Part shown: in pieces, positions 5,264-21,638 of the stretch
Layout: each line of letters begins with the position of its first letter
Numbering within the stretch: the stretch's first letter is position 1
Virus record (IMG/VR): IMGVR_UViG_3300042569_001787
Span: 1-64,000 of that record
Reading direction: 5' to 3' (one strand)
Length of the DNA stretch: 64,000 nucleotides
DNA from: a virus
Made by a program: the position numbers and the translations under genes
Notes under the pieces: model-generated
What the model was told of the DNA's origin: nothing
The model's database searches: none
The model's input: the letters and a program-made list of their open reading frames with translations, nothing else

Positions 5264-5293
5264 AAAAAATCCCGATTGTGTAGTCGGGATTTT
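5264..5293. terminator. bidirectional terminator between convergent genes
   Basis: AAAAATCCCGA...TCGGGATTTT. Confidence 0.75.
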
Positions 5294-5319
5294 AAAACTT
5301 TAAAAAAGAATTTAGTTAT

Positions 5320-7188
5320 TTAAGACTTAGTTTCTTCAAATTCAACATCAGACGCGTCCATTGCACCGTCATTATTCTCTTGATTTACGCTTTCATATAA
5401 ATCCTGACTAATCTTTTGAAACTTCTGAGTTAACTCTTCCATGATTTGTTTGACTGAGTCAATTTCTTTTTTACCGTGAGCGTCTTTTAACTTAGTAATG
5501 CCTGTGGTAATCTCAGTTTTATCTTCTTCAGATATTTTATCACCTAAATCTTCTAATGATTTATTCATTTGGAAAATAGTACTGTCTGCAGAATTTAAAG
5601 TATCGACATCTTCTTTTATTTTTTTATCTGATTCCGCATTTTCTTCCGCTTCAAGTTTCATTTTTTCAATATCTTCTTTGGATAAACCTGAAGACGACTC
5701 AATTCTTATAGATTGTTTTTTACTTGTTGCCTTATCAACCGCAGATACATTTATAATACCGTTCGCATCAATATCAAAGATAACTTCGATTTGAGGAATA
5801 CCTCTCATTGATGGTGGTAACCCATCTAAATGGAATCTACCAATAGTCCGATTATCTTTTGACATTGCCCGTTCACCTTGTAATACGTGAATTTCTACAG
5901 TTGGTTGGTTATCTACCGCAGTTGAGAATACCTGTGATTTTTTGGTTGGTATGGTTGTGTTAGACTCAATTAATTTTGTAAAAATTCCTCCCATGGTTTC
6001 GATACCTAATGACAATGGAGTAACATCTAATAGTAATACATCTTTAACATCACCAGCCAATACACCACCTTGAATTGCGGCACCTAAAGCGACAACCTCA
6101 TCAGGGTTAACTCCTTTTGAAGGTTCTTTACCAAAGAATTCTTTAACCGCGTTTTGAATTGCGGGAATACGGGTAGAACCACCAACCAAAATTATTTCAT
6201 CAATTTCACCGATAGTAATGTTTGCATTTGACATTGCGGTTATGCAAGGTTTGATTGTTCGTTTAATTAATGAATCCGCCAATTGTTCAAATTTGGCACG
6301 AGATAAAGAAGTTACTAAGTGTTTAGGGCCTGTTGAGTCGGCACTTAAATACGGTAAGTTAATTTCTGTCTGAAGTGACGACGATAACTCAACTTTTGCT
6401 TTTTCCGCAGCTTCACGTAAACGTTGTAACGCCATAGAATCTTTAGTGACATCAAGACCGTCAGTTGATTTTTTAAATTCATCGACCATAAAATCAACAA
6501 TCACTTGGTCAAAGTCATCTCCACCTAAGTGAGTGTCACCATCGGTTGACAACACTTCAAATACACCACCACCTAATTCAAGTATTGATACGTCATGTGT
6601 ACCACCACCACAGTCAAATACAACAATTTTCATATCTTTAGACATTTTGTCTAAACCATATGCTAATGCTGCTGCGGTAGGTTCGTTAATAATACGTTTA
6701 ACCGTTAGACCTGCAATTTCACCAGCTTCTTTGGTTGCTTGACGTTGTGCGTCATTAAAATACGCGGGTACCGTAATAACCGCTTCTGTAACACTCTCAC
6801 CTAAATAATCTTCGGCAGTTTGTTTCATTTTTTGTAAAACAACTGCAGAAATCTCTTGTGGAGAGTAATTTCTATCATCAATACTCACTCTAGGAACGTT
6901 CCCGTCTCCTTTTACGATTGAATACGGGACTTTAGACAATTCTTTTTTAACCTCGTCATAACTTGTCCCCATGAAACGTTTAATTGATGAAATTGTTTTG
7001 GTCGGGTTTGTAACCGCCTGTCTTTTTGCTGGGTCACCAATTTTTCTTTCTCCGCCATTAATAAATGCCACTATTGAGGGTGTGGTTCTTTTCCCTTCAC
7101 TGTTTGTAATCACAACAGGTTCGCCATTCTCCATGACTGCCACACATGAATTTGTGGTCCCTAAATCTACTCCAATAATTTTTCCCAT
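5320..7188 (-). CDS. dnaK: Hsp70 chaperone DnaK
   Basis: [31 protein letters not shown] motifs; 622 aa. Confidence 0.98.
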
Positions 7189-7277
7189 AGTTAAATAATG
7201 TTTTGTGTAATAATATATAATAAAATTTATAGAGTCAAGCTCCTAAATAAAATCTTAAATAATTGTGCCAAAACAAA

Positions 7278-7300
7278 AAAACTGACAATTTGTCAGTTTT
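7278..7300. promoter_or_regulatory. perfect inverted repeat (candidate operator) between divergent dnaK and AsnRS-like gene
   Basis: AAAACTGACAA-T-TTGTCAGTTTT. Confidence 0.55.
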
Positions 7301-7376
7301 ATGACAAATAAAAATAAATACGTAAAAAAATAGTAATTATTTTACTTTTATTATTTTAAGAATATATTTATTTTTA

Positions 7377-7457
7377 ATGAAACAAAACGGGCCAAACCGA
7401 AACTGTGAAAACAATATAATAAAAGGTATCACCTTTAATAATCCCATCATTTATTGA
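7377..7457 (+). CDS. putative Asn-rich leader peptide (26 aa)
   Basis: MKQNGPNRNCENNIIKGITFNNPIIY; 7 Asn; stop lies within terminator hairpin. Confidence 0.45.
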   Translation: MKQNGPNRNCENNIIKGITFNNPIIY

Positions 7458-7470
7458 TGGGATTTTTTTT
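7440..7470 (+). terminator. leader terminator (attenuator-like)
   Basis: AATCCCATCA-tttat-TGATGGGATT-T run, ~40 nt upstream of ATG 7512. Confidence 0.75.
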
Positions 7471-7511
7471 GCCCATATGTGAAAAATAAATAAAAATAAA
7501 TAAAACAAAAA

Positions 7512-8339
7512 ATGAAAGACACAAAAACTTACAATGAACTAGTACAAAAGATGAGAGGATTTTTCCTTGATAAAGGATTTATAGAGGTACCAACACAATC
7601 AAGGTTATCAATATTGGCGGCATGTGAAAACCCACATTCAATCGCAACTTTTAACTATAATGGAGAAGTTTGGCCATTACCACAGACGGGCCAGATGTGG
7701 TTAGAATATGAGTTACTTAAAAATCCCGAATGGAACGGAGTGTTCTGTATATCAACTTCGTATAGACAGGAAAAAAATCCTATCCCTGGTAGACACGAAC
7801 TAATATTCCCAATGTTTGAATTTGAGTCTAAAGGTGTTATGGAAGATATGGTAAAACTTGAATTGGAACTTTTAAATTATTTAGGTTTTGATAAACCTGT
7901 AGAAGTTAATTATGATGATGTGTGTGAAGAATACGGAGGGATTCCAATTTTAGAAGATGAACATGAATCAAGAATGTGGAAAGAAAAAAGTTCAGTTATC
8001 TCACTTCAGAATTTTCCATTGAGGACAAATCCATTTTGGAATATGAAACATAATGAAAATAGTATTTTTAATAAAGTTGATGTGATACTTTACGGACAAG
8101 AGACTATTGGAAGTGCTGAAAGAAGTTGTGACCCTGAAGAGATGAGACATAACTTTTATACTATTGAACGTGGCGGTTATTCCGCCAAGTTGTTTGAACT
8201 ATTTGGAAGAGACAGAGTTGAGTCAGAACTTAATGAGTTCCTATCATTTAATTTTTTTCCAAGGTTTGGTGGTGGCATTGGTATGACAAGATTGTCAAGA
8301 GCGTGGAATTTAAATCAAGTTAATTTGGCGATTATTTAA
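7512..8339 (+). CDS. class II aaRS catalytic-domain protein without anticodon domain (AsnRS-like, probably archaeal-type asparagine synthetase)
   Basis: GFIEVPT motif 1, SYRQE...RH...F.MFEFE motif 2, GGGIGMTRL motif 3; only 275 aa. Confidence 0.75.
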   Translation: MKDTKTYNELVQKMRGFFLDKGFIEVPTQSRLSILAACENPHSIATFNYNGEVWPLPQTGQMWLEYELLKNPEWNGVFCISTSYRQEKNPIPGRHELIFPMFEFESKGVMEDMVKLELELLNYLGFDKPVEVNYDDVCEEYGGIPILEDEHESRMWKEKSSVISLQNFPLRTNPFWNMKHNENSIFNKVDVILYGQETIGSAERSCDPEEMRHNFYTIERGGYSAKLFELFGRDRVESELNEFLSFNFFPRFGGGIGMTRLSRAWNLNQVNLAII

Positions 8340-8359
8340 AAATTTTGTATCTTTACTGT

Positions 8360-8554
8360 ATGATTAAGAAATCAATAAATAAAAACGAAATTGAATATAA
8401 AAAATGGGAACGTGTCTACGAAGATGAAGATACGATTAGTATTTGGAAATACAATTCAAAAATAAGTATGATTAACCCTTATGAGGTTGAGATAAAATAT
8501 AAAAAACCGCCAGTTACTAATGGCGTTAAGAGAACAAAACTAAGTGGGTTATAA
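8360..8554 (+). CDS. hypothetical protein (start revised to ATG 8360)
   Basis: ATG 4 nt after TATCTTTA promoter-like element. Confidence 0.55.
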   Translation: MIKKSINKNEIEYKKWERVYEDEDTISIWKYNSKISMINPYEVEIKYKKPPVTNGVKRTKLSGL

Positions 8555-8583
8555 TATAATCCACTTTTTTTATATTTATTAAT

Positions 8584-9009
8584 ATGAAACTATTAAACAT
8601 TATTAAGGAAAGTGTTAATAAAAAATTAATGTTAAACGCATTAAAAGATATGGGGTTTAATTATGAGGATTCTCAATTTGAGTTGGGTAGTTTAGTTAAA
8701 TATGTTGAAAATTTACCTAACCCTGTAAAATTATATCGAATAGTTGTAATTGATGATGAAAATAATGTCAACACAACTTACCCTGGTTCTCATTACTCAA
8801 CAAGTCAAAAAGATTTAGTGGGTTCACATTCTTACTTAACCGGATATGGTGACAAATATTTTATAATGACGGTAATTGCCAACAAAGAATTAATTGACGT
8901 TAATAGTACCATTCATAACAATATCCTGTATCCGAATGAGAATGAAGTTACATTAAAAAATAGAGGTAAGGGGGTTGAAATCCTGAGTATTAAAAAATTA
9001 AAAGTTTAA
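8584..9009 (+). CDS. putative ADP-ribosyltransferase-fold protein
   Basis: KLYR...SHYSTS...ENEV pattern (R-S-ExE); N-terminal IIKES tag. Confidence 0.45.
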   Translation: MKLLNIIKESVNKKLMLNALKDMGFNYEDSQFELGSLVKYVENLPNPVKLYRIVVIDDENNVNTTYPGSHYSTSQKDLVGSHSYLTGYGDKYFIMTVIANKELIDVNSTIHNNILYPNENEVTLKNRGKGVEILSIKKLKV

Positions 9010-9017
9010 TCTAAACT

Positions 9018-9461
9018 TTAGTAATATTTTATTTTATTTTTTGCGTTCTGAATTAACCAAGGCTCAACATTTGGAATTTTATCCAAAAAATTTAATTCAT
9101 ATCGATAACAAACAATCTCTTCATCATTTGGCGGTAGAGAGCAATTATGTTTTAAGAAAAACAAATGTTTTGATTCATGGACTAATATCGCGGCAATATT
9201 ATTTATTGAGTTAAAATTCATATCCTTTTGAGATATCATAATGGTCTTAGAATCTTCTGTTGTCGAAAACCCACCATTCCAAAAAGATATATGATTACAA
9301 ACCTCGATTAAGGTCAAATACTTTTCTGAGTCAGTACTTTTTATTAAAAGTAATGCTTCAGTAACCTTATATTTCCAATTATCCCCAACATCCTCAATCT
9401 TAATTTGTGCGGTAGATTCTAACGTACAAAAAAACAATATTATTAATAAAAGGTATTTCAT
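9018..9461 (-). CDS. secreted HExxH metallopeptidase-like protein
   Basis: Signal peptide ending STA-Q; ILVHESKH...EE. Confidence 0.65.
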   Translation of the reverse strand: MKYLLLIILFFCTLESTAQIKIEDVGDNWKYKVTEALLLIKSTDSEKYLTLIEVCNHISFWNGGFSTTEDSKTIMISQKDMNFNSINNIAAILVHESKHLFFLKHNCSLPPNDEEIVCYRYELNFLDKIPNVEPWLIQNAKNKIKYY

Positions 9462-9557
9462 AGTTTTTTTTAATAATAAATAGTAAAAATACGGTCGATA
9501 TTATAAACAAAGAATATTTATTGTCAAGAGTGAAATAAATAAACTAAAAAAATAAGT

Positions 9558-11459
9558 ATGAAAAAACTAGTAACCTTGTTTGTCATTTTGGCAACGACCC
9601 TAATTGGATATGCTCAAACATGTCCAACACCCACGACAAGTGGAGTTTTTGTTACGTTAGATTCTAATTATCAATTGGCGCCGTCGGCAGTTGGTTTTAC
9701 TAACGTAGGTTTGTGTTTTTACAACAACACAACAACATTAATTACCGCGACACAATTCAGAGTATACTATGACAAATTAGCATTTTCTGGCATTAACACA
9801 GTCACCTCATTAAACACGTCATATTCTCAGTATTTACAGTATGTTGATAACCCATCATTAGGTTTTGTGACAATTACATTATCTTACACAGGTAGTTTAT
9901 CATCATTCGAAATTCCTGACGGAGCTTTTGTACAATTGAAGTTGAATCATATTACAGGATTTTCCACACTATCATCTGTTGATAATATGTCATTTAGCGG
10001 TGTTAACACATTCCCCTCTATTTCCACAAATCAAGATGGTACTGACAATACTTTAACTTTACAGAACTTTGGTGGTGTTATGTCACCTCAAACATTTTCG
10101 TTTAGTGGTACATTTACTAACGTTACAGGAACGGGGGCAAAAAACCTAACGGTTGGTTTAGAGAAAAAACTTAGGCCAAACGGTTCTTGGACACCTGTAA
10201 CAAGTGTATTATCAAACAATAGTGGTGTTTTCGCATTTAGTAATATTGCGGTAGATACTACGGGTTATGATGTTCGTATTAAAATTGTTGGTGACACTAT
10301 GTTAGTTGGTAACGTAATTTCTACCGCTGACGCTCAAAAAGTTAACGACTATGTTTTAGGTACACAAACACCTACAGGTTTTGACTATTACACCGCTGAC
10401 GTTAATGGTGATAATAATTTAACTATTTCTGACGCTTATGGGGTATTTGGTAGAATTTCTGGTAGATTCTCAGTTTGGCCTAACAGTGTGAAAGACGTTA
10501 AGTTCTTTACCTCATCCGAATATGAGACAATTAATGGTTCATCGACTAATTATCTATCATCAATTTTTGGAACAACTAACTTTACATTTAATATTATTGA
10601 GGGAGCCTCTTCTCCAACATTCTATGTGTTAGTTCCTGGCGATGCAAATGGTACAGGTTACCATATGGCTCGTGTTACACCAATTGAAGTTTTAATTACA
10701 CCTCAACCAGGTGTTGAATCACAAATTTATAACGTGATTGACACTAAAGTAGACTATGACTTCCCTACAACATCTATTGAGGTTAACGTACCTCACTTAT
10801 CTGTTCAAGAAGGTAGTTTGGTTAATATACCTATTAAAGTGTTAACTAATGGTGTTAAATTAGGTTCATTACAATTCGGATTAAAATACAATGACACATT
10901 ATTAGACTTCAAAGGAATTGATGCAAAATCATCAGCTTCAAGTTGGTTAACCTACTTGAATACTAATGACAATGAGATTTCATGGGGGGGATATGATGTT
11001 AGTTCACATTTAAAACCATTAAATGATGGTGATGAAGTTGTTACATTAAAGTTTATTACAAAACAACCTCAAGACCAATGGACAACAAGTCCTCTTTGGA
11101 CCACAAATAAGTTTGCGGGTAATAATACGTGTAAAGATTTAACTATCACACCAACAAACGGTATTTTACAAGTTTATAAATTATCTAACCCTGGCGTTGG
11201 TGGATTTGACGACATGACAGTATTCCCTAACCCAACGGATGATTATATTAATGTTAAATTTGAAGTTAAAGAATATGGACCTGTTAAATTATCGGTTTAC
11301 GGTATTAATGGGGTTGAATATAAAATAGTGGTTAATGATAAAATGCCCATGGGTGATTATCAATATGAAACTAGTTTAGGTAACTTAACTGCAGGTGTTT
11401 ACATCGCGGTTCTTAAAAGAAGTGACAAACAATTAACAAATAGAATTATTTTAAAATAA
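9558..11459 (+). CDS. secreted cohesin/dockerin-like protein with T9SS type-A C-terminal sorting domain
   Basis: SP GYA-Q; cohesin-like QFRVYYD and LQFGLKYNDTLLDF...VVTLKF; EF-hand ADVNGDNNLTISDA; CTD VFPNPTDD...GVYIAVL...RIILK. Confidence 0.8.
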   Translation: MKKLVTLFVILATTLIGYAQTCPTPTTSGVFVTLDSNYQLAPSAVGFTNVGLCFYNNTTTLITATQFRVYYDKLAFSGINTVTSLNTSYSQYLQYVDNPSLGFVTITLSYTGSLSSFEIPDGAFVQLKLNHITGFSTLSSVDNMSFSGVNTFPSISTNQDGTDNTLTLQNFGGVMSPQTFSFSGTFTNVTGTGAKNLTVGLEKKLRPNGSWTPVTSVLSNNSGVFAFSNIAVDTTGYDVRIKIVGDTMLVGNVISTADAQKVNDYVLGTQTPTGFDYYTADVNGDNNLTISDAYGVFGRISGRFSVWPNSVKDVKFFTSSEYETINGSSTNYLSSIFGTTNFTFNIIEGASSPTFYVLVPGDANGTGYHMARVTPIEVLITPQPGVESQIYNVIDTKVDYDFPTTSIEVNVPHLSVQEGSLVNIPIKVLTNGVKLGSLQFGLKYNDTLLDFKGIDAKSSASSWLTYLNTNDNEISWGGYDVSSHLKPLNDGDEVVTLKFITKQPQDQWTTSPLWTTNKFAGNNTCKDLTITPTNGILQVYKLSNPGVGGFDDMTVFPNPTDDYINVKFEVKEYGPVKLSVYGINGVEYKIVVNDKMPMGDYQYETSLGNLTAGVYIAVLKRSDKQLTNRIILK

Positions 11460-11524
11460 TAACATGCGGTCACACATTGTGACCGCTTAGCCTTAAACAA
11501 TAAACTAAATAAAAAACAAAAATT

Positions 11525-11872
11525 ATGTCAGAGGAAACAACAAATGAAACAAATGAAACAAATGACGGTACTTGGTCAGGTTTAAAAAAGACCATTATCG
11601 GAACATTAACAACAGTAATTGCTGGTGGTGGTATATGGCTATCAACAATGTTATTCGGGGGTCACTCAGAAGATAAAGAAGAAACTAAAACAGAACAAAC
11701 TGTTGCGCCTTCACCTGTAATTGTTAATGTACAACAAAATCAAGAAAATAAACAAAAAGTTGAAAACGGCGGTGGTACCAATACTATCATCAAAGAAAGG
11801 ATTATTGAAAAACCTGCGACTCAAACAGAACCTGCAGTTAAACCTGTTAAGAAAGAAGAAGACTCTTGGTAA
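11525..11872 (+). CDS. single-pass membrane protein with extended Pro/Gln/Glu-rich tail
   Basis: TM IIGTLTTVIAGGGIWL. Confidence 0.75.
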   Translation: MSEETTNETNETNDGTWSGLKKTIIGTLTTVIAGGGIWLSTMLFGGHSEDKEETKTEQTVAPSPVIVNVQQNQENKQKVENGGGTNTIIKERIIEKPATQTEPAVKPVKKEEDSW

Positions 11873-12588
11873 TGAAAAAGTTATTATTAATTGCGTTACC
11901 AATTTTATTGTTCTCTTGTAAAGTAAGTGGACAAATAGGGACCGTAAAAACTGAAGAATATCAAGCGGATTTTGAAAAGAAACAATCCATGTCTGTTGTG
12001 TCGGATTACACCGATACAATCGTAATCCCAATACAAGTTCTTAAAATTGGCATCAATGAAGAGCTATACGAGATGTATCCTGAACTTAAAGATAAAAGAG
12101 TAGGATTAGGGGTTGCTAACATTGTTTTAGAATACTTGGAGTCAACAGATAGATTTAAATTTACTGAAGATAAAGAGGAAATTAAACAGAAAATGATTGC
12201 ACAAGACAAGGCTTCTGATAAAGGTATTTCAAGTAACAAAATAGAGGTTAAAGGTAATGTAATCTTAGCCAAATATTTTGTTTACATAGAGGTATATGAC
12301 TTTTCAGTATCGGAAGACGAGGTGATAAAGGCGACTGACGAAGCTAAAACAACTCAAACAACTCGTTTAGGGTTACAAGTTAGATTTGTAGATGCTGAGA
12401 CAGGTGAAATCTACACAGGAAGTGGTTTAGGTGAATCATCTACAGTTAAAACGTCATCACTATTATCGGATGTTGAGGGTATTAAATTTAATCAATCAAC
12501 AATAGGTATTTCGACCAAAAAGGCTCTTGAAACGGCATCGTCAAGAGTTGTGTCAAAATTAATAAAAAAGGGTGTCTTTAAAAATTAA
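11872..12588 (+). CDS. CsgG/HfaB-like exported protein (possible lipoprotein)
   Basis: SP with LLFSC; RLGLQVRFVDAETGEIYTGSGLGES and KKALETA typical of CsgG-like fold. Confidence 0.7.
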   Translation: MKKLLLIALPILLFSCKVSGQIGTVKTEEYQADFEKKQSMSVVSDYTDTIVIPIQVLKIGINEELYEMYPELKDKRVGLGVANIVLEYLESTDRFKFTEDKEEIKQKMIAQDKASDKGISSNKIEVKGNVILAKYFVYIEVYDFSVSEDEVIKATDEAKTTQTTRLGLQVRFVDAETGEIYTGSGLGESSTVKTSSLLSDVEGIKFNQSTIGISTKKALETASSRVVSKLIKKGVFKN

Positions 12589-12592
12589 AAAA

Positions 12593-12940
12593 ATGAGTTT
12601 AAAAAGTTTATTTATTAGTAAAAACAAGATGACAAAAGTAGAAGATAAAAATAGATTCTATTATATGTTACAAGAAATGCAAAATAATCGTTGGAGAATC
12701 ACGGCAATCGTATTAGGGTTATTTACACTAATCATTGTTGGTATCAATGCTGGTGTCTTTTTAGGGGCGTCTATTGGCGAAGATTGGAAAGAAATGTTAT
12801 TAATTTTACTAGGCGCCTTTGTTGGTAACTTAAATAAAGTTGTTGACTATTGGTTTAACTCTGAAGATAGAGATAAAATGTTAATTCAAAAAGTGGACGA
12901 AGAAGACGGAGTATCTTTATCTAACACAACAGAAGTATAA
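12593..12940 (+). CDS. 2-TM inner-membrane protein (holin-like)
   Basis: Two TM helices; WKEMLLILLGAFVGNLNKVVDYWFNS; exact start uncertain (12572/12593/12629). Confidence 0.65.
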   Translation: MSLKSLFISKNKMTKVEDKNRFYYMLQEMQNNRWRITAIVLGLFTLIIVGINAGVFLGASIGEDWKEMLLILLGAFVGNLNKVVDYWFNSEDRDKMLIQKVDEEDGVSLSNTTEV

Positions 12941-12941
12941 T

Positions 12942-14441
12942 ATGAACATTAAGAAAATTTTAATAACAATAAGTTTTCTGTTCTCTACTATGATGGTTTT
13001 AGGTCAGGGGTTTTCGTACACATTTACGGACCCCTGTACCTTTAAATCTAAGGAAATTTTTATAAACAATCCCAATGGGAGTGTTGCCTTAATATATTCA
13101 GGGCAGATTCAAAGTTTCACACAAACACAATTACAGTCAGGGGCATTAGAGACTTGGGTTAATCAAGTTAACTCATCTAATCCACAAGGAACAGGTCCTT
13201 GTGCGGGTGTTGGTGTTGCTTTAAACACTAGTTTGAATGTTCTGATTGCTGCTAATAATATATCGGTGTTAACAAATGTTATGTCTACCATGTCTAGTCT
13301 CTCATCTATGGGTGGAGGGGCAACAGTTCAGGGGGTAATTCAAAGTAATGAAAAAGTATCGTCAAATAACAAAAAAGAAGATAAAAAAAATAACCCAAAT
13401 CAAGGGACCACAACCAACGAAGGGTCAAACCAAACTAACACCCCAAATGGTGTTTCTAATGGGTCTAACAATCAAACACAAAATAATGGTACCACAAATA
13501 ACAATGGAGGAAGTACAACTTCTTCTGAAACAAATCAAACAAACGCGCAATCACAAGGAAATAACGGAACTAACCCAAACACTGGAGGAGGTAATTCAGG
13601 TGAAGGAGGAACAACAACAACGCAAGGAGGTGGGACTACAGGTTCAGGTAACACAACTCAAGGAGGAAGTTCGACGACTCAATCGTCTGTAGGTGGAAAC
13701 GGTAACTTGTCAAATAATTCAAATACCGACCAAAAATCTAACGAAGATAAAATGAATGATGCAAGTAAAACTTCATCATCTAACTCCGCACAAGTTAAGT
13801 CAAAAGTTGCCTCGGTTAAAAAAGGAAGTCTTATGATGACAGGTGATATTGTTACCATATCAAGTGCGACAGGTGAAGAAAAACCACAACTTAAAGTTAA
13901 CATGAGTATTATTAATTCTAACACTAAGAATACTTTTGCAAAAGGGATGTTACTTAATTATACCAGTAATATTAACAACTCTTGTTTAACCTTGTTTGCC
14001 GCATATCGATATAAAAATTCAACAACAATAGTCGCAAATTCATCAATGATAAATTTTGATAGAGATTTTTTTAATACTACGTCATTAATGGAATCTTATA
14101 AAATAAAGAAAATAACATCAACAATTGGGGTTAACTACACCAGGGGTAATTTAGGCGAATCTAAATTTACTAGTTTATCGGGATTAGGCGGTCTTGTTGG
14201 TAATTTTAATGTTGGAAAAAAAATAGGCACCACTTTAATGTTTGTAATGGTTTACTCACCTTACGTCTATTATTATGAAGGTTTATGGTATCAATCAGGG
14301 TTATTGGCAGTTCCATTTGTTGCCGTTGATTACAAGTTAACTCAAAAATTTAAATTGAACCTTAGTTTTAGTGGGGTTCAACAAATTAAGAGTGACGCAA
14401 TAAACTACCAAGTATTACTTGGAGCTAAAGCACTTTTATAA
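12942..14441 (+). CDS. exported protein: N-domain + N/G/T/Q low-complexity linker + probable C-terminal outer-membrane beta-barrel
   Basis: SP VLG-Q; ~150-aa N/G/T/S/Q tract; alternating amphipathic strands ending YQVLLGAKALL. Confidence 0.65.
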   Translation: MNIKKILITISFLFSTMMVLGQGFSYTFTDPCTFKSKEIFINNPNGSVALIYSGQIQSFTQTQLQSGALETWVNQVNSSNPQGTGPCAGVGVALNTSLNVLIAANNISVLTNVMSTMSSLSSMGGGATVQGVIQSNEKVSSNNKKEDKKNNPNQGTTTNEGSNQTNTPNGVSNGSNNQTQNNGTTNNNGGSTTSSETNQTNAQSQGNNGTNPNTGGGNSGEGGTTTTQGGGTTGSGNTTQGGSSTTQSSVGGNGNLSNNSNTDQKSNEDKMNDASKTSSSNSAQVKSKVASVKKGSLMMTGDIVTISSATGEEKPQLKVNMSIINSNTKNTFAKGMLLNYTSNINNSCLTLFAAYRYKNSTTIVANSSMINFDRDFFNTTSLMESYKIKKITSTIGVNYTRGNLGESKFTSLSGLGGLVGNFNVGKKIGTTLMFVMVYSPYVYYYEGLWYQSGLLAVPFVAVDYKLTQKFKLNLSFSGVQQIKSDAINYQVLLGAKALL

Positions 14442-14442
14442 A

Positions 14443-14895
14443 ATGAAAAAAATATTATTAATTATGTTCACAACATTAATGTTGTTAACCTCTTACTCAC
14501 AGAACTGTTTAACCGTTAAACATGTTGAGAACAAAGGGTCTATTGAAGGAATTAACCCTAAAAGATTTACTCTTGGTGTTAAACAAATTACTGAAGAACT
14601 ATTATCACAAAAATATTCAATATGTGAGAATGGCGATTCTGTGTCAGTTGTTATTGAAAGTATTGAATCCCCGACTACAGGGATTTCAATAGGTCCATTT
14701 GAAAAGAAGAGAAAAGTGACTATTGTTACTTTAAAGGTTGGTATTAATGGTAAAGAATTTGAAGGTGTTGGTGAAAGTAAGGTTGATGTTAAGTCAACTT
14801 TCATCGAACTACAAGATGAAAACATACCGTTTGAGAAATCGTCATTTTCTGCGGGATTAAAGAAGGCGTTACAAGACGCAATATCAAAATTTTAA
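14443..14895 (+). CDS. exported short CsgG-like paralog
   Basis: SP SYS-Q; GVKQITEELL, GVGES, LKKALQDA mirror GVANIVLEYL, GLGES, TKKALETA of 11872 ORF. Confidence 0.6.
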   Translation: MKKILLIMFTTLMLLTSYSQNCLTVKHVENKGSIEGINPKRFTLGVKQITEELLSQKYSICENGDSVSVVIESIESPTTGISIGPFEKKRKVTIVTLKVGINGKEFEGVGESKVDVKSTFIELQDENIPFEKSSFSAGLKKALQDAISKF

Positions 14896-14896
14896 C

Positions 14897-16567
14897 ATGA
14901 AAAATACATTATTTGTTATATTAACACTTTTGTCTTTGACAGTGAGAGGACAAAATTTTACCTATTCAGGTTACATCTATAACGCAAATAGTGTTGGTGC
15001 GGTGAACGTACCTGTTAAATTATATAAAAGAACCACACCAACATTAGTAGGATTTACGTCTCAAACAAATTATAACGGACACTCATATTATCGTTCGACA
15101 GGTACCGCAACTTGGACCGCATCCAAATCCTCTTGTGAGTCAATGAATGGACATTTGGTGACAATGTCTAACGCGGCAGAAAATACGTTTGTATATAATA
15201 CTTGGCCCTCAGGTTGGATTGGGTATTACCAAGATAGGGTTGCTGGATTTTCATACTCAGAACCTTTAGGCGGGTATAGATGGACCGAACTTCCTGTTAC
15301 AAATGGTTTACAATCAGATTATGATGTTGCGTCTTATACTTCAGGTGCGTCATTAGTAGACATTAAAGGCGGTGTTAATGCAACACTAACAAATTCACCG
15401 ACTTATACAAGTACATCAGGTAAATATCTAACATTCAATGGTGTAAATCAATATGGTATGACAGGTAATTTAGCGTTAAAAGTTCCTGGTGTTACAACAT
15501 CATTAATGATGTGGATATATCCAACAGGAAATGGTGTTATCGTTACTGAGTTAGGTCAAGGCACCACAACTTCAGGTTGGCACAATTCACAAATTGAAAT
15601 AACAGGTGGTAACACTTTAAGAGTTGGTATTTGGAATACTAATATAGTATCATTAAGTACCTCAATCACATTAAACACTTGGAATTTAGTTGGGTTCACT
15701 TATAATGGAACTACTTTAAAAGGGTATAAAAATGGTGTGAGTTTTGGTTCGTTAGTGACCCCAAGACAATCTCCTGTATTATATGGTAATGGTTTATATT
15801 ATGGAATTGGTTTATCCGACGCAACCAATATGGGGTCGGGGGCATACGGTTCATTTAGATTAGGGGACTTTCAAGTATTTGATAGAGGTATAACCGACGA
15901 TGAAGTTAATAGAATATATAACCTTTACGCTTATAGATACGGAATTTATCCTTATTCAAATTGGAACCCAGGTGAACCAAATAACTCGGCTAATGAAGAT
16001 TATACTCAATTTGTTAGTGGAGGTAAGTGGAACGATTTAAACAACAGTAGTTCTTTAAATTATGTGTTAGAGTTTGATTATATCGTAGATTATACTCCTT
16101 GGGTGTTATTTAAAACTATTAACACCGACGTAACAGGAAAATACACAATTAACGAAACTACAAATCCATCGGTAGAATGGTACATTCAAATAGACGCACC
16201 AACAACAATAACAGGACTTCAAAACGTTGACGCGATTGGCGCATCGACAAAGGCAATTTCAAGAACTTTTACATCTTTAGATTATTACAAATATGATGTT
16301 AATAATGATGGTAACATTACTGTTTCGGATGAATATTATATTTTTATGAAAAAAATTAATAGATTCATCTCTTGGGGTTCTTCATTACCAAGTGTGAGAT
16401 TATTTACCTCGTCACAATTTTCAATCATTAACACATCAACAACTGATTTAAGAAGTACCTATCCAGGTGTTCAAAATATTACTATCTCGTCACCTGTAAG
16501 TGGGGGTAGTGCAAACTATTACCTAATAAACACGGGTTATTCGAACTCGACCATATTGGGTTATTAA
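14897..16567 (+). CDS. exported C-type lectin + LamG (ConA-like) + dockerin-like protein
   Basis: SP VRG-Q; YNGHSYY...C...GHLV...EN...WIG...NWNPGEPNN...WND; LamG WNLVGFTYNGTTLKGYKNG; EF-hand YDVNNDGNITVSD. Confidence 0.8.
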   Translation: MKNTLFVILTLLSLTVRGQNFTYSGYIYNANSVGAVNVPVKLYKRTTPTLVGFTSQTNYNGHSYYRSTGTATWTASKSSCESMNGHLVTMSNAAENTFVYNTWPSGWIGYYQDRVAGFSYSEPLGGYRWTELPVTNGLQSDYDVASYTSGASLVDIKGGVNATLTNSPTYTSTSGKYLTFNGVNQYGMTGNLALKVPGVTTSLMMWIYPTGNGVIVTELGQGTTTSGWHNSQIEITGGNTLRVGIWNTNIVSLSTSITLNTWNLVGFTYNGTTLKGYKNGVSFGSLVTPRQSPVLYGNGLYYGIGLSDATNMGSGAYGSFRLGDFQVFDRGITDDEVNRIYNLYAYRYGIYPYSNWNPGEPNNSANEDYTQFVSGGKWNDLNNSSSLNYVLEFDYIVDYTPWVLFKTINTDVTGKYTINETTNPSVEWYIQIDAPTTITGLQNVDAIGASTKAISRTFTSLDYYKYDVNNDGNITVSDEYYIFMKKINRFISWGSSLPSVRLFTSSQFSIINTSTTDLRSTYPGVQNITISSPVSGGSANYYLINTGYSNSTILGY

Positions 16568-16607
16568 ACTATTTATATAAAAAATAAACTAAATTAAATT
16601 AAAAAAA

Positions 16608-17429
16608 ATGTTATTAAAAAAAGGGTCTAAAAGTGAAGACGTTAAAAAATTACAATCAAAATTGGGTCTAACGGCTGACGGTAATTTTGGTTCTGGAACT
16701 GAAACTAAAGTAAAAGAATGGCAATCCGCAAACGGATTAACCGCCGATGGTATAGTTGGAGACGGTACTTGGAGTAAAATGTTTGGTAGTAAAGTAATAA
16801 AAGAAGACGTTGTTATCCCAAAAGGAGGACCATTAAACTTAGAAAAATTAAAAGGACATATTCCTGATTCGGTTATTGCACAAATCCCTGAGACTGCGGT
16901 AAAATTTAACATAACTAACTCATTAAGATTATCTCATTTCTTGGCACAATGTGGTCATGAAAGTGGTGGATTTAAAGCGGTTAGTGAAAATGTTAATTAT
17001 TCTGCAGATGGTCTTAAAAAGATTTTTGGGAAATACTTTCCTGGCAACTTAAATGAGTCTTATGCTCGTCAACCTGAGAAGATTGCTTCAAGAGTATATG
17101 CTGACCGTATGGGTAATGGTAACGAAGCTTCTAAAGAAGGTTTTAAATTCCGTGGAAGAGGATACATTCAATTAACTGGAAAATCAAACTACACAAACTT
17201 TGCTAAATTTATTGGTGAAGATACTGTTACAAATCCTGATTTAGTTGCAACAAAATATCCATTAGCGTCTGCTGCGTTTTTCTTTGACTCAAATAAACTT
17301 TGGTCAATATGTGATAAAGGGTCTGATGTTGCTACTGTAACTGCGGTTACAAAAAGAGTAAATGGAGGTACTATCGGATTAGAAGATAGGATTAAACACT
17401 TTAAAGAATATTATTCATTATTATCGTAA
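16608..17429 (+). CDS. endolysin: PG-binding domain + GH19
   Basis: ADGNFGSGT/ADGIVGDGTW; HFLAQCGHESGGF; FRGRGYIQLTGKSNY; VTKRVNGG. Confidence 0.92.
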   Translation: MLLKKGSKSEDVKKLQSKLGLTADGNFGSGTETKVKEWQSANGLTADGIVGDGTWSKMFGSKVIKEDVVIPKGGPLNLEKLKGHIPDSVIAQIPETAVKFNITNSLRLSHFLAQCGHESGGFKAVSENVNYSADGLKKIFGKYFPGNLNESYARQPEKIASRVYADRMGNGNEASKEGFKFRGRGYIQLTGKSNYTNFAKFIGEDTVTNPDLVATKYPLASAAFFFDSNKLWSICDKGSDVATVTAVTKRVNGGTIGLEDRIKHFKEYYSLLS

Positions 17430-17456
17430 ATTATCCATAATGATTAAACCAAAATA

Positions 17457-17487
17457 AAAAAGGGGATGATAGCGAATCTCCCCTTTA
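17457..17487 (-). terminator. terminator hairpin between convergent genes
   Basis: AAAAAGGGGA...TCCCCTTT. Confidence 0.7.
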
Positions 17488-17534
17488 ATGTGTTACCATG
17501 ACAGTAACGGTCCTAAACGTCCCCAACTTGGGGA

Positions 17535-18041
17535 TTATTTTTCTTTAACTAAAACTAAACATCTTTTAAGATATTCTTTAGCTCTAGATGTTGGGTCAGG
17601 ATGACCAAGTACTTTTTCAATGTCTTTAACTAATTCTTCTCCGTGTTCGTTTTCTTTATAAAGTTCAATCACTTTATCCATCGCTTGAATACAACCATTA
17701 TTAGTCTCGTCAAAATAATTCTTTTTTCTAAAACCATTAATATGGTTCATTAAGTTATATGCTAAATGTTCTCCACCATCACTAATTGTGTCAGGGTGTA
17801 GTCTTAAAGTCCTTAACATATCTAACGTATCAACCATTCCATTGATACCACCTTCTCTTTTGTAGATTTTATTTGAGTAGTTTTGGAAACTTTTAGCTGG
17901 ACCCACGATGTCATCCAAAGGAATTACATTCCCAGCGACACATCTTGGTTTTTGCTCTTTAGACTCAATTTTTGTTTGTTCTAAAATATGTTGTCTAATT
18001 GTCATACGAAGTTTTTTTTCGTCAATTATAATTCTTGCCAT
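17535..18041 (-). CDS. hypothetical protein with IIIDE/ILEQ N-terminal tag
   Basis: 168-aa ORF; TATTTAT upstream on minus strand. Confidence 0.7.
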   Translation of the reverse strand: MARIIIDEKKLRMTIRQHILEQTKIESKEQKPRCVAGNVIPLDDIVGPAKSFQNYSNKIYKREGGINGMVDTLDMLRTLRLHPDTISDGGEHLAYNLMNHINGFRKKNYFDETNNGCIQAMDKVIELYKENEHGEELVKDIEKVLGHPDPTSRAKEYLKRCLVLVKEK

Positions 18042-18150
18042 TTTGTTTTCTTTACACTATAAATATTAAGATAAATGTAATTATTTGTAATGACGTATAT
18101 TTATAGTAAAATAAGTCTAATAGACATAAATTTTAAATACAATACTATGG

Positions 18151-18372
18151 ATGATGATTGTACCTATAAAAACTTGGAGAAAGATATTTTTAGGGAATCT
18201 TTCGGTAAAATTTTTAATGTTGGCCATGTTCTTCAATCCATTTGGATTCGATGCCGTCCAATACTATCTTATTACTGTAACAGGAAGTATCTTATACGCC
18301 AATTTAATTTTGTATTGTATTTCGGGTCTATTCTTTGGATTATACTTTTATTTTCGAAAATTATCTAAATGA
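18151..18372 (+). CDS. small membrane protein
   Basis: Hydrophobic 73-aa ORF overlapping ppk2 start. Confidence 0.55.
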   Translation: MMIVPIKTWRKIFLGNLSVKFLMLAMFFNPFGFDAVQYYLITVTGSILYANLILYCISGLFFGLYFYFRKLSK

Positions 18373-19487
18373 AACTAATTGAGTCCAACATATATAGAAT
18401 AACTAACTTAATGGGATTTACCCCTAATAAGGTTATTATTGAATCTGAACCTGATAATAAAAACGAATATTATTTAAAAAGAATTGTTGATTTATTACAG
18501 TTCAACCGATTATATAATAGTGAAAATAAAATAAATTTAAATAAAATTCAACAATTTGCCAAAGAAAATTTAATAGATTTTGGATTATTAGAAAGGGGTA
18601 TGGTTAAATTATTAAAGTTAAAAGGTAACCGAAAATTAAATTTATCCGAATTTTTTAGCGAATTAATTAAATCTTTAGAAAAAAGACATTCTCATATTAA
18701 CATAGGTAAACCTGAAACTAACGACGAATTTTCATTTGAACCACAAGAACCATCAGTTGTACCTAAAAAAGTATATAAAGAAGAGTTATATTATTTACAA
18801 ATTGAGTTATTAAAACTTCAAGAGTGGTTAAATAAAACTGGAAAAACGGTAATTATTGTTTTTGAGGGTAGAGATTCTGCGGGTAAAGGGTCAACTATTA
18901 AAAAATTTACCGAAAACATGAACCCAAGAAATTATAATGTAATTGCCCTTGGAATACCAACACCTGAAGAAAGAAAAAATTGGTGGGACAGGTACAGAAG
19001 TCAAATTCAAAAAGGTAAAATAAATTTATTTGATAGAAGTTGGTATAACAGAGGTCTTATTGAACCAGTTATGGGTTATGGTAATCCTGAAGAATATGAA
19101 AATTTTATGGACAATGTTGAGGGGTTTGAAGAAGATTTAGTTAAAGATGGTAATTTTTTATTTAAATTGTGGTTCTCGATAGAAAAAGAAACTCAACAAA
19201 ATAGATTTGACATGAGACAAAAATCTCAACTTAAGTATTGGAAGTATTCCCCTAATGATGAAAAAATGCAAGACCTTTGGGATAGATTTACAGAATTTAA
19301 AGAAAAATTATTTGATAAAACATCAACAGTTAATAATCCTTGGGTTGTTATTGATTCAAACGATAAAAAAATCTCAGGATTAAATTCAATCAGGTATGTA
19401 CTCCAAAATATACCTTATGAAGATAAAAATAAAAAAATATTAAACCAATATTACCCTGAAGCACTTTCAGTTTTAAACCCTAAGTAA
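18369..19487 (+). CDS. ppk2: polyphosphate kinase 2 with ~130-aa N-terminal extension
   Basis: FEGRDSAGKG Walker A, FDRSWYNR, WKYSPND. Confidence 0.93.
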   Translation: MKLIESNIYRITNLMGFTPNKVIIESEPDNKNEYYLKRIVDLLQFNRLYNSENKINLNKIQQFAKENLIDFGLLERGMVKLLKLKGNRKLNLSEFFSELIKSLEKRHSHINIGKPETNDEFSFEPQEPSVVPKKVYKEELYYLQIELLKLQEWLNKTGKTVIIVFEGRDSAGKGSTIKKFTENMNPRNYNVIALGIPTPEERKNWWDRYRSQIQKGKINLFDRSWYNRGLIEPVMGYGNPEEYENFMDNVEGFEEDLVKDGNFLFKLWFSIEKETQQNRFDMRQKSQLKYWKYSPNDEKMQDLWDRFTEFKEKLFDKTSTVNNPWVVIDSNDKKISGLNSIRYVLQNIPYEDKNKKILNQYYPEALSVLNPK

Positions 19488-19709
19488 TTACTCCTCCGAT
19501 TTATCATCCTCCGTTGGTTTCGGTAGGATAAGTTGTAACCAAATATCAAAAACTAAAAAGTAAATCCACCAAGTTAGTTCTGATATCGTATGTGGGTCAG
19601 GATTTAAATAAGTTAGGTATAATAAAATAAGTATTTTAGTTGCAATATAGATTCTAACAACTAAAGTTAAAAATATTAAAAATTTTTTCATATTATAATT
19701 TGATTTCAA
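19488..19709 (-). CDS. small 2-TM membrane protein
   Basis: Hydrophobic helices. Confidence 0.55.
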   Translation of the reverse strand: MKSNYNMKKFLIFLTLVVRIYIATKILILLYLTYLNPDPHTISELTWWIYFLVFDIWLQLILPKPTEDDKSEE

Positions 19710-19757
19710 AAAGGGTTTTTTAATTTGTCTTCAGGTACTTAGTTACGATTTACAAAA

Positions 19758-19916
19758 TTAAATACTTTTGTTTTTTTCATTTGCAAAAATTTCTATTTGT
19801 CTTTTAACCATTTCTAAGGTTGTGTAAGCATAAACCTGTGAATCCTCTAAATTTTCTTCGGGAAATTGGGTTTGTTGTTCCTCAATCCACTTAATAATTT
19901 TTTGATAATCACACAT
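19758..19916 (-). CDS. 52-aa hypothetical protein (not in ORF track)
   Basis: MCDYQKIIKWIEEQQTQFPEENLEDSQVYAYTTLEMVKRQIEIFANEKNKSI. Confidence 0.45.
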   Translation of the reverse strand: MCDYQKIIKWIEEQQTQFPEENLEDSQVYAYTTLEMVKRQIEIFANEKNKSI

Positions 19917-19985
19917 ATTATTCCGTTTATTTAAGTAAATTATAAGAAAAAAAACATTAAACGTAAAGAAAAGTATTTATATCAT

Positions 19986-20996
19986 ATGTTAAACCCACAA
20001 CAAATAGAAAAAATAAATAAGACAATTTCCAATAGGGTATTTAATTATAATGGAATATTAATTAATGGTATCGACACAAATGTAAATATTGACTTTAAGA
20101 TTGAGTTTTTAGGGTACAAAGAAATGATTAGTGTTGGTGAATACTACGACTATTTAAAAGTTGGGGTTACTATTATTGGATTAAATGATAGATTATCTAG
20201 ATTAATTCTTTCAGACAATAATTATCTTGGGGGTAATCAATATCAATTTTTTAAAAATAATTTATATCATTTTTATTCTAGTTTAGAATCTTATATTTCT
20301 TCGGTTGTTAAATTATTTGATAATGAAGATAGTCTAATTACTATTTGGGATATTAAATTAGATTTGAGAAAAAAACCATTAACAATGAATGAAGGTAGAA
20401 TGAGTAGAGTTGCTTTAAAAACAGTGAATGAAGGTAGAATGAGTAGAGTTGCTTTAAAAACAGTAGTTAGAGATATCATATATAAAGTTAAAGAAGGTAA
20501 AAAGGGTTTATTTTATTTACCTAAAGAAGATGAATCATACGAATTTACTAATTTACCATTTTCTTTTGATGTAGAATTAACATTAAAAACTAGCGGTAAT
20601 ATTAAAGATTATCAGATGAATGGATATTACTCTTCTGAGGAAGATGTAGTTGAGATTATTATAATATTTAATCCTAATAGATTTAAAGAATATGTTTACA
20701 ATTTGATTGGTGAGTTAAATGAGGTGTTGGCTCATGAATTAGAACACGGTCATCAGAATTATAGGGGAGAATTTGAGGATAGGAGTGATGCTGACACTAA
20801 AGACTCATTAGTTTATTATACTCAAGAACATGAAATACCGGCGCAATACGCAGGATTTAAAAGACTCGCCAAACTAAGGAAAGTGCCATTTAGTTCTGTA
20901 GTTAATGATTGGTTTAGAACCCACAAAGATATTCACGGTTTAACCGATGATGAAGAAAAAATAGTAATAGATAAGATTTTAAATTTTAAAAGATAA
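19986..20996 (+). CDS. two-domain protein with C-terminal HExxH metallopeptidase-like domain
   Basis: LAHELEHGHQ...YY...HEIPA. Confidence 0.7.
   Translation: MLNPQQIEKINKTISNRVFNYNGILINGIDTNVNIDFKIEFLGYKEMISVGEYYDYLKVGVTIIGLNDRLSRLILSDNNYLGGNQYQFFKNNLYHFYSSLESYISSVVKLFDNEDSLITIWDIKLDLRKKPLTMNEGRMSRVALKTVNEGRMSRVALKTVVRDIIYKVKEGKKGLFYLPKEDESYEFTNLPFSFDVELTLKTSGNIKDYQMNGYYSSEEDVVEIIIIFNPNRFKEYVYNLIGELNEVLAHELEHGHQNYRGEFEDRSDADTKDSLVYYTQEHEIPAQYAGFKRLAKLRKVPFSSVVNDWFRTHKDIHGLTDDEEKIVIDKILNFKR
20386..20463 (+). repeat. exact 39-bp tandem duplication (NEGRMSRVALKTV x2)
   Basis: TGAATGAAGGTAGAATGAGTAGAGTTGCTTTAAAAACAG twice. Confidence 0.95.
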
Positions 20997-21002
20997 CTAT
21001 CT

Positions 21003-21638
21003 TTAATTTTTTTCTTTAAAAACTCTAATTAATTTAGAAAATAATTCTTTAATAATAATACCCGAGACTGTTAAGACACCAAAAGAAGATAATCTAATGG
21101 CAATTTCTTTAACATCACCAGATTTAAATGTCCCTGAAGTAACGGCACTATAAACAATTGGTATTAATGGGATAATGAAGGTGTAACTCATTATATTAGT
21201 GACTGAGTGTAATGTGAGGTTTAAACCTTGCATAAAATCAACAAAAGTACTTTTTAATTGATTGGCCTTATTTAAACCTGTTTTAAATTCTTTGGATAAT
21301 CCCTCAGATTTAATTTTCTCTAATATTTTTTGAATCATCTCTTTATTGTTCATATAGAACGTTGCAATAATTCCTGTTAATATTAAACTCATTTCCACAT
21401 CAGAAACATTTGGGTATTTACCCGCAATAAACTCATTTAAAGGACCAACAAAACCTCCAATACTTGCTCCCCATGTAAATAAGAATTCAAAATTCATACC
21501 CATTTGTTGTGACGACATTTTTAAAACGTCTTTAACAAATTTATAATTTTGTTTTACCATATCACCAAATTCGTTATTAACGGATTCTCGTAATATAATT
21601 CTTTTTTGATTTTCGTTTATTAATAAAGTTGCTCCCAT
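21003..21638 (-). CDS. membrane protein with LINE/ILRE N-terminal tag
   Basis: Several hydrophobic helices. Confidence 0.7.
   Translation of the reverse strand: MGATLLINENQKRIILRESVNNEFGDMVKQNYKFVKDVLKMSSQQMGMNFEFLFTWGASIGGFVGPLNEFIAGKYPNVSDVEMSLILTGIIATFYMNNKEMIQKILEKIKSEGLSKEFKTGLNKANQLKSTFVDFMQGLNLTLHSVTNIMSYTFIIPLIPIVYSAVTSGTFKSGDVKEIAIRLSSFGVLTVSGIIIKELFSKLIRVFKEKN

Follow-up and report, generated by a model that had tools for sequence, protein, structure and literature searches.

Exported Proteins Encoded at the Locus

We analyzed the first 64 kb (here, the window) of a single 92.75-kb viral contig, IMG/VR record IMGVR_UViG_3300042569_001787, and focus on a compact block of eight genes at window positions 9018-16567 that combines a scaffold protein bearing a type IX secretion system (T9SS) tail, a lectin partner, two CsgG-like proteins and a predicted outer-membrane beta-barrel. 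From their sequences, every one of the eight gene products is predicted to be exported or membrane-inserted. Seven of the genes run along the plus strand with intergenic gaps of -23 to 65 bases, and the eighth encodes a secreted HExxH protein on the minus strand (Table 1). A signal peptide followed by glutamine is found in five products, namely the HExxH protein, the scaffold, the barrel, the second CsgG-like protein and the lectin partner. The first CsgG-like protein has a lipobox (LFSC), and the last two products are membrane proteins. An earlier note on this DNA, made without database searches, had placed the plus-strand genes correctly but counted six of them, where there are seven. The Gln-type signal peptides it assigned to four plus-strand products and to the HExxH protein can all be read directly.

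Comparison with sister phages shows that the block is a single 7.56-kb unit that was gained or lost whole. Contig L105 is 98.6% identical to window positions 1319-9015 and 98.1% identical to positions 16581-23732, and everything between is absent. The same empty site is found in contig L103, with flanks that are 86-92% identical; here a homologue of the gene at 8584-9009 is followed directly by the endolysin gene, with no spanin-like gene between them. Five sister records have no CsgG-like match, but these records are only 13-39% complete, so that the result speaks for the empty site and not for absence from the genome. The insertion/deletion is clean, and at this site the block is dispensable, that is, accessory. 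Because L105 lacks exactly 9016-16580, the HExxH gene lies inside the block and the endolysin gene, which falls within the stretch covered by the earlier note, lies outside it.

PHROGs has no family for any block product, except for a low-complexity match on the linker of the barrel protein. No paralogue of the cohesin, stalk, CsgG-like or barrel modules is found on the other open reading frames (ORFs) of the 92.75-kb contig.

Table 1. Features of the block and its surroundings (window coordinates; aa, amino acids)
Feature	Position	Strand	Description
Mobile block	9016-16580		Present here and missing from sister phages (7.56-kb insertion/deletion); each junction has a short direct repeat around TAAACT
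Secreted HExxH (zincin-like) protein	9018-9461	-	147 aa; signal peptide ending in STA before Gln; motif HESKH; first gene of the block
Divergent AT-rich intergenic region	9462-9557		Between the HExxH and scaffold genes
Scaffold	9558-11459	+	633 aa; signal peptide, N-terminal domain, beta-sandwich/dockerin-like module, cohesin, T9SS tail
G+C-rich hairpin	11466-11486	+	9 bp, in the scaffold-tether gap; no T run after it on the plus strand
Tether	11525-11872	+	115-aa single-pass membrane protein; stop codon overlaps start of the lipoprotein gene
CsgG-fold lipoprotein	11872-12588	+	238 aa; alternative TTG start at 11866; best-conserved gene of the block
Small membrane protein	12572-12940	+	~115-122 aa; one long hydrophobic stretch (40-69)
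Stalked outer-membrane beta-barrel (predicted)	12942-14441	+	499 aa; signal peptide, N-terminal domain, linker, C-terminal barrel
Second CsgG-like protein	14419-14895	+	158-aa ORF, ~151 aa from ATG at 14440; shortened paralogue
Lectin partner	14897-16567	+	556 aa; signal peptide; stalk with inserted C-type lectin split by LamG; no T9SS tail
Endolysin	16608-17429	+	PG_binding_1 and GH19-type catalytic domain; phrog_181, 1e-66; outside the block

A Scaffold with a Host-Type Export Tail and a Lectin Partner

After a signal peptide ending in GYA, the scaffold has an N-terminal domain (residues ~20-185), a beta-sandwich with a dockerin-like calcium loop (~186-370), a cohesin (~395-545) and a T9SS type A sorting domain (555-633). 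This tail is recognized in the window's own protein, with 35.8 bits against PF18962 (cut-off 27) and 26.3 bits against TIGR04183 (cut-off 23). The phage likely infects Flavobacterium-type bacteria, of the genus Flavobacterium, and the scaffold profile matches 95 of 121 genomes of that genus. Among the matches listed, almost all cover the tail alone (~540-628), with E values down to 1.8e-14. The phage protein thus joins a host-like export signal to a body that is foreign in all other parts.

The other modules of the scaffold are assigned with differing strength. When 18 orthologues (45-83% identical) are aligned, Por_Secre_tail is matched in 18/18, Cohesin in 15/18 and Dockerin_1 in 13/18, the last always below threshold. 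The cohesin matches (PF00963) are full length, reach 46.6 bits against a cut-off of 24.1 and fall on the equivalent of residues ~395-545; the window scaffold itself has no Pfam cohesin match at E ≤ 1. For the N-terminal domain, the nearest named Atlas clusters are cohesins (0.87-0.88), and an hhalign comparison with the C-terminal cohesin of the same protein is not significant (0.5%), so that a cohesin-like nature is a lead only. The dockerin-like module is a weak match both in Pfam (E 0.034) and to PDB entry 4uyp_B (E 0.007 with the single protein, E 0.00068 with the profile), and all Dockerin_1 scores (14.8-19.6 bits) are below the cut-off of 22.9. Two duplicated calcium-binding loop-helix segments, as expected of a dockerin, are not found in this module. 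Only its second calcium loop, DVNGDNNLTISD, is canonical, and this is true of scaffold and partner alike.

The lectin partner is built on a stalk paralogous to scaffold residues ~208-366 (E 5.6e-20). The stalk consists of a beta-sandwich, a dockerin-like calcium loop, YDVNNDGNITVSD, and a C-terminal segment, and the head is inserted near its start. In Pfam, the head matches Lectin_C (PF00059, E 1.7e-7) and Laminin_G_3 (E 1.2e-10), and the EPN and WND sugar/calcium-site motifs are kept across lectin-bearing partners. While the stalk is constant, the heads of 41 distinct partners vary: Lectin_C is found in 26, LamG in seven (in addition to Lectin_C), GEVED in seven, PA14 in two and Ig_7 in two. 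Judging by its sequence, the head is a glycan-binding-type domain that is exchanged between phages, with sugar binding predicted. Three larger partners of 766-770 aa (L042:12820-15132, L048:12874-15177 and L059:12737-15037) have a weak Lectin_C match plus a CHU_C-associated Ig-like domain; heads are therefore stackable as well as swappable.

We infer that the partner docks onto the scaffold through a contact between cohesin and stalk. A complex prediction that paired residues 392-550 of the scaffold (the cohesin) with the mature form of the partner, run without controls, scored 0.23 against a mark of 0.32 and counts neither for nor against such docking.

A CsgG-Like Pair and a Stalked Barrel

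The lipoprotein of the block is confirmed as CsgG-like by transitive homology and by the fold of its model. The window protein alone has no Pfam match. An exhaustive search gave 239 representative relatives, and 6,493 protein clusters match the lipoprotein; the lipobox cysteine, Cys16, is nearly invariant in the family. Pfam CsgG (PF03783) is matched by 24 of 34 diverse full-length homologues (best E 3.7e-23), and the family profile matches Escherichia coli CsgG structures at E 9.6e-6. For the AlphaFold2 model (predicted local distance difference test, pLDDT, 82.7), the top Foldseek hits are CsgG chains (E 4e-8). VIA-align superimposes the model on CsgG with Z scores of 13-13.8 and root-mean-square deviations of 2.7-4.2 Å over 170-198 residues, and gives lower matches to Cj1090c (11.0), PelC (10.0), LptE (9.3), FlgT (9.0) and TraT (8.3). 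In the viral structure library, the model is closest to a phage CsgG. A PDB search with the single sequence returned only designed pentatricopeptide repeats, a result that we judge spurious.

The second CsgG-like protein aligns with the family of the first in hhalign (97.3%, E 1.8e-11). Its signal peptide is followed by Q-x-C with no lipobox, and it is therefore probably periplasmic. A match of its profile to ribosomal protein S1 (E 0.003, 48 residues) was rejected as spurious.

The curli CsgG pore is a 36-strand membrane barrel formed from two amphipathic hairpins. At the sequence level, across 34 members of the CsgG-like family here, the distal hairpin (~146-165) shows no hydrophobic alternation; mean hydropathy is negative at most positions, and many positions have a charged residue in ~20-75% of the sequences. 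For the second hairpin, the model contains only one strand. Because the putative membrane-spanning hairpins are polar family-wide, a curli-type channel appears doubtful. In addition, none of the block products matches a csgA/B (fibre) or csgE/F family in Pfam or NCBIfam.

The gene after the small membrane protein encodes the stalked barrel. Its N-terminal domain (24-120) contains two invariant cysteines and is joined by a disordered, N/G/S/T/Q-rich linker of ~170 aa, very variable in length, to a C-terminal domain (296-497) with 12-14 strands. The AlphaFold2 model gives this domain 13-14 strands of 10-18 residues and has a pLDDT of 70-88 there and below 50 in the linker. All 50 listed fold matches are membrane beta-barrels, nearly all of them bacterial outer-membrane proteins, and include the NalP translocator (Z 15.4), CymA (15.1), OmpG (14.3), AIDA-I and PorV (14.2), FapF (12.6) and PelBC (11.3). 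Phage-encoded porin-like barrels in the viral structure library match as well. No sequence family is assigned to the protein, and it has no Pfam autotransporter match. The model and the fold search confirm its predicted identity as a beta-barrel. By analogy with PelBC or LptDE, a barrel paired with a periplasmic lipoprotein would fit these data better than a curli-type channel.

The Block in Phages and Bacteria

When viral contigs were searched with the lipoprotein, 124 loci were confirmed, 80 of which were fetched. All 80 have a lipoprotein relative, on contigs from a few kb to 309 kb, and every locus that includes flanking DNA also encodes the scaffold, tether, barrel, second CsgG-like protein and partner there. 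Compared with the window, the lipoprotein has a median identity of 76%, the tether 63%, the scaffold 51% and the second paralogue 47%. The genes are not always in the same order: the lectin comes first or last, and the HExxH gene is either upstream and divergent or downstream. The block is also carried by a cultured phage, Flavobacterium phage vB_FspM_immuto (host Flavobacterium sp. LMO8), as gp013-gp019, in a different gene context, beside replication genes rather than the endolysin.

In bacteria, close relatives are rare. The lipoprotein family is found in three of 201 host-genus genomes; one of these matches is a phage-like contig in a bin (the search seed), and the other two are weak (E 1e-14). 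The family is thus nearly absent from the host genus, and the phage therefore supplies something that the host lacks. In a phylum-wide sample of 201 genomes, a close relative is found in the seed genome only. A few bins of the FCB group (Ignavibacteriales, Rhodothermales and one Bacteroidota metagenome-assembled genome) carry the family as a tandem pair, in which the first copy passes Pfam CsgG with 28.6-31.6 bits and the second resembles both phage paralogues. In two of the FCB bins, a protein with a barrel-like C-terminus adjoins the pair. The phage CsgG-like pair therefore has rare bacterial counterparts, and the tandem pair region may represent an uncharacterized bacterial envelope system ancestral to the phage trio of lipoprotein, shortened paralogue and barrel. 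In three FCB bins (L089:7002-10890, L088:4979-7623 and L087:7974-9277), the barrel-like C-terminus of the neighbour ends in F. By eye, a large protein adjoining the pair in one FCB bin is caspase-like.

Smaller Genes and Intergenic Features of the Block

The tether has an acidic N-terminus, a hydrophobic span (~21-45), a low-complexity tail rich in P, E, K and Q, and a conserved C-terminal (D/E)SW. It occurs in 77 related loci and has no family match in Pfam, NCBIfam or PHROGs. The small membrane protein is found in only ~33 related loci and is absent from immuto; its Pfam and NCBIfam matches (DUF456, SLATT) are all below threshold. The gene for the HExxH protein is present in 52 related loci. 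In 15 orthologues, neither its HExxH motif nor an EE..Y..E further downstream varies. Pfam zincin matches of this protein are weak and below threshold, and a PDB sequence search found none.

The region between the HExxH and scaffold genes contains a perfect TTGACA-16-TATAAT promoter sequence (12/12, E. coli-type consensus) on the minus strand, from 9527 to 9500, ~38 bases before the HExxH gene. The main sigma factor of the host group reads TAnnTTTG, and an E. coli-type consensus is therefore odd here. No Bacteroidota-type TAnnTTTG (-7) box is found upstream of the scaffold gene.

Flanking Genes, Genome and Host

The endolysin gene is followed by a terminator-like hairpin at 17519-17535. Of 80 loci whose endolysin shares at least 81% identity with this one, 54 have no CsgG-like gene in the fetched flanks (at most 9 kb and often shorter), and in the other 26 the block lies within ~2.7-7 kb of the endolysin gene. 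A second endolysin-like gene (287 aa, minus strand, 1595-2458) matches phrog_181 at 2e-36 and has a GH19-type region. It lies ~14 kb from the endolysin gene; the phage therefore has two related cell-wall hydrolases. In L110 (7344-8271 and 10091-10315) and L116 (8775-8960), neither of which has the block, small membrane- or lipoprotein-like ORFs lie beside a closely related endolysin gene. These are candidate holin or spanin genes and could show the usual lysis set of this phage group.

Upstream of the block, the backbone at 5320-8339 encodes a 622-aa protein (phrog_22485, E 1.7e-251) and a 275-aa protein (phrog_29758). The homologue of the 622-aa protein in L103 (4238-8290) has, by eye, an Hsp70-like motif at its start. 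Six tRNA genes (Arg-tct, His, Ile-gat, Met, Glu, Asp) lie at 33852-36880, five of them within ~570 bases. The contig ends, beyond the window, inside a Gly/Ser-rich triplet repeat run (~92650-92750), and these repeats probably account for the stop of the assembly.

The G+C content of the window is 26-36%. In a DNA comparison with named phages, for which the query started at window base 5000, only one short stretch matched, in the CsgG-like gene, with 75% identity to immuto. The phage genome is probably in the ~300-kb class, because CheckV rates contigs with closely related endolysin genes as 13-39% complete at 39-127 kb and because the lipoprotein gene is also found on viral contigs of 271-309 kb.

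Possible Function of the Block

Most of the protein assignments in the earlier note hold up: the T9SS C-terminal domain of the scaffold, the two CsgG-like proteins (through Pfam matches of homologues, fold search and paralogy in hhalign), the beta-barrel, and a lectin with no T9SS tail, although its dockerin part is weak. The note had drawn the scaffold as cohesin-dockerin-cohesin; the C-terminal cohesin stands, the dockerin is weak and the N-terminal cohesin is the lead described above. Where it proposed a CsgG/HfaB-type pore, the CsgG fold and sequence relation are borne out, but the pore-forming hairpins are polar. The genes do travel together in related phages, both in immuto and in the 80 viral loci, and the signal peptides, together with the absence of cohesin or stalk modules from other ORFs of the contig, indicate that the products are not virion parts.

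We hypothesize that the block is an accessory, horizontally mobile envelope module that places exchangeable lectins on a surface scaffold of the infected cell, and we put the probability of this model at about 0.45, a little short of even. In this model, all block products would cross the inner membrane by Sec. The host T9SS would then take the scaffold over the outer membrane and cut off its tail, so that the scaffold ends up at or close to the cell surface. The partner would join the scaffold through contact of its stalk or dockerin-like module with the cohesin, either in the periplasm before export or outside, which it could reach after release or by another route across the membrane. The infected cell would bear a multivalent array of lectins, and the exchangeable head would determine which sugars it binds. 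The lipoprotein, its shortened paralogue, the stalked barrel and the inner-membrane tether would form a separate complex of bacterial (FCB-group) ancestry, in which a barrel with a periplasmic lipoprotein ring or plug, similar to PelBC or LptDE, might serve as an anchor or conduit. The pay-off would lie in binding host-type surface glycans, which could hold sister cells or particles, or mask receptors from other phages or from the phage's own progeny.

Several points weigh against this model. Binding between cohesin and stalk is a prediction, and the dockerin-like segment, with its one canonical calcium loop, may be a mere structural part of the stalk. The partner has no tail of its own and no known route across the outer membrane. 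Flavobacterium type A tails often yield released rather than attached proteins. The display role of the outer-membrane trio is purely something we infer, and hhalign shows no significant homology (2-3% probability) between the phage barrel family and the barrel-like bacterial neighbours. Finally, the terminator shared with the endolysin gene hints at expression together with the lysis genes, and this timing would be late if the block made a coat or served exclusion.

A bolder form of the model holds that the block is a complete, portable display system among Bacteroidota phages, in which scaffold and outer-membrane complex jointly present the lectin for capture or exclusion and the trio is a new export route; we consider this unlikely. 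We assign a similarly modest chance to two independent cargoes that happen to travel together, with the CsgG pair and barrel forming an outer-membrane pore or a periplasmic complex, comparable to the csgG/csgF clusters of pelagimyophages, for uptake, envelope stabilization or exclusion, and the scaffold and lectin forming a separate secreted adhesin. In favour of this reading, phage csgG clusters without fibre genes have been published (PMC7029224, PMC9004378), the closest viral structure to the lipoprotein model is a phage CsgG, bacteria carry the tandem CsgG-like pair with no scaffold or lectin, and the fold family includes the exclusion lipoprotein TraT (Z 8.3). Yet, where flanks are present, none of the 80 viral loci has one half without the other, even though the lectin moves from end to end, and the block is lost as a single unit, so that selection seems to hold the halves together. 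The scaffold and partner might instead be secreted by the T9SS as a soluble lectin complex that agglutinates cells or binds polysaccharide particles. This would suit a type A (TIGR04183) tail, and two cohesin-like modules and one dockerin-like module on the scaffold could chain multivalently, but the membrane-bound half of the block is left unexplained and a soluble complex would presumably be diluted in open water; we regard this as improbable.

The proximity of the endolysin gene, here and in the 26 loci, raises the question of a role in lysis, in which the block would be a spanin-like accessory for opening the outer envelope, with the tether and the lipoprotein-barrel pair linking the membranes and the lectin and scaffold directing the target or timing. 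The only terminator-like site follows the endolysin gene, no canonical spanin was noticed beside it, and the tether and lipoprotein genes overlap and encode topologies like those of an i-spanin/o-spanin pair. However, L105 (98% identical) and L103 keep the endolysin gene and lose the block, with nothing in its place, and the immuto block is ~6 kb from the endolysin gene, among other genes. The o-spanins are small and evolve fast, whereas the lipoprotein is globular, has 220 aa and the CsgG fold, and is 70-99% identical between viral loci; the tail of the tether is low-complexity rather than a coiled coil. A lectin, a cohesin or a T9SS tail does not belong to any known lysis system. Accessory status and head swapping thus fit an interaction with the host better than a core lysis role, and we give the lysis explanation a small chance, kept alive by the endolysin adjacency and the tether-lipoprotein gene pair. 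A place for the products in the virion, as tail or decoration components, is very improbable. Phage fibres can indeed carry lectin, Ig-like and PA14 domains, but a signal peptide, lipobox or membrane span on every product would take it out of the cytoplasm, where virions are assembled. In addition, the scaffold carries a T9SS export tail, PHROGs matches no structural-protein family, and the block is missing from the 98%-identical sister contig.

Changes that phages make to the host surface, by converting the O-antigen or by means of exclusion proteins, are known, and curli-pore genes with no explanation are present in a few phages. What has not been described is a phage-encoded substrate of the host T9SS that is tied to a cohesin scaffold, swappable lectins and outer-membrane parts of its own. 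The family is abundant in public data and the block is present in a cultured phage-host pair, while near-identical contigs with and without it amount to a natural knock-out. Understanding the block could show how phages of a major group of aquatic bacteria manage cell-cell contact or competition, and could reveal the role of the CsgG-like/barrel trio in the bacteria that bear it. If the block does prove to be a complete display system, it would be a programmable sugar-binding coat, capturing sister cells for progeny or excluding competitor phages.

Comparison with Known Systems

The block resembles cohesin-dockerin assemblies in that a cohesin is found on a predicted surface scaffold and a dockerin-like calcium module on a second secreted protein with an exchangeable domain. 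It differs from them in having one canonical calcium loop, in a module that forms part of a larger conserved stalk, which the scaffold has as well, in carrying lectins rather than enzymes as cargo, and in its predicted anchoring by T9SS instead of sortase or S-layer homology domains. The label 'cellulosome-style', which it had been given, is thus an overstatement. As T9SS type A cargo, the scaffold is unremarkable in its signal peptide with glutamine after the cleavage site and in its tail, which passes both curated thresholds and is host-like (E 1.8e-14); the difference is that it is encoded by a phage. To our knowledge, no phage-encoded T9SS substrate has been characterized, and a literature search found neither such a substrate nor a phage cohesin-dockerin pair.

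The layout of the barrel protein, with an N-terminal domain, a linker and a C-terminal barrel, is that of type Va autotransporters (NalP, AIDA-I, Hbp), and the NalP match (Z 15.4) extends over 216 residues, with an aligned range that includes a helix at 99-121. In contrast to these proteins, it has no Pfam autotransporter match and ~170 disordered residues between helix and barrel, and OmpG-, CymA-, KdgM- and PorV-type barrels score within 1.3 Z units. With PelB-PelC and LptD-LptE, the block shares a barrel gene beside a lipoprotein gene of the CsgG/PelC/LptE fold group, and the models match in both parts (PelC Z 10.0 and LptE Z 9.3 for the lipoprotein, PelBC Z 11.3 for the barrel). This is an analogy of architecture only: CsgG is clearly the better match to the lipoprotein (Z 13-13.8), no sequence relation is seen, and the block has no polysaccharide or lipopolysaccharide genes.

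Clusters of csgG and csgF without fibre genes are found in pelagimyophages (HTVC008M group) and in the Methylophilales phage Melnitz, where uptake, 'sibling capture' and lysis control have been proposed as roles (PMC7029224, PMC9004378). The statement that no such phage system had been described is therefore too strong for the CsgG part of the block. Like these clusters, the block encodes a CsgG-fold outer-membrane lipoprotein with a few exported neighbours, in a variable region with no curli fibre genes. The published clusters have canonical CsgG and CsgF, close to proteobacterial genes, whereas the lipoprotein of the block falls below the Pfam CsgG threshold, has polar hairpins and is not accompanied by CsgF. 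The block in turn adds a second paralogue, a stalked barrel, a T9SS scaffold and a lectin.

The same block is found in immuto, whose record labels only 'lectin C-type' and 'cohesin' domain proteins; our literature search found no paper that describes the block in immuto or elsewhere. In immuto, the block begins with the lectin gene, two separate genes (gp014 and gp015) encode the scaffold, and the LamG insert, the small membrane protein and an adjacent HExxH gene are absent. Despite these differences and its location beside replication genes, ~6 kb from the endolysin gene, immuto gp013-gp019 match the block throughout, with identities of 48-50% for the partner (shared parts), 34% and 29% for the two scaffold genes, 67% for the tether (N-terminal half), 73% for the first CsgG-like protein, 34% for the barrel and 47% for the second CsgG-like protein.

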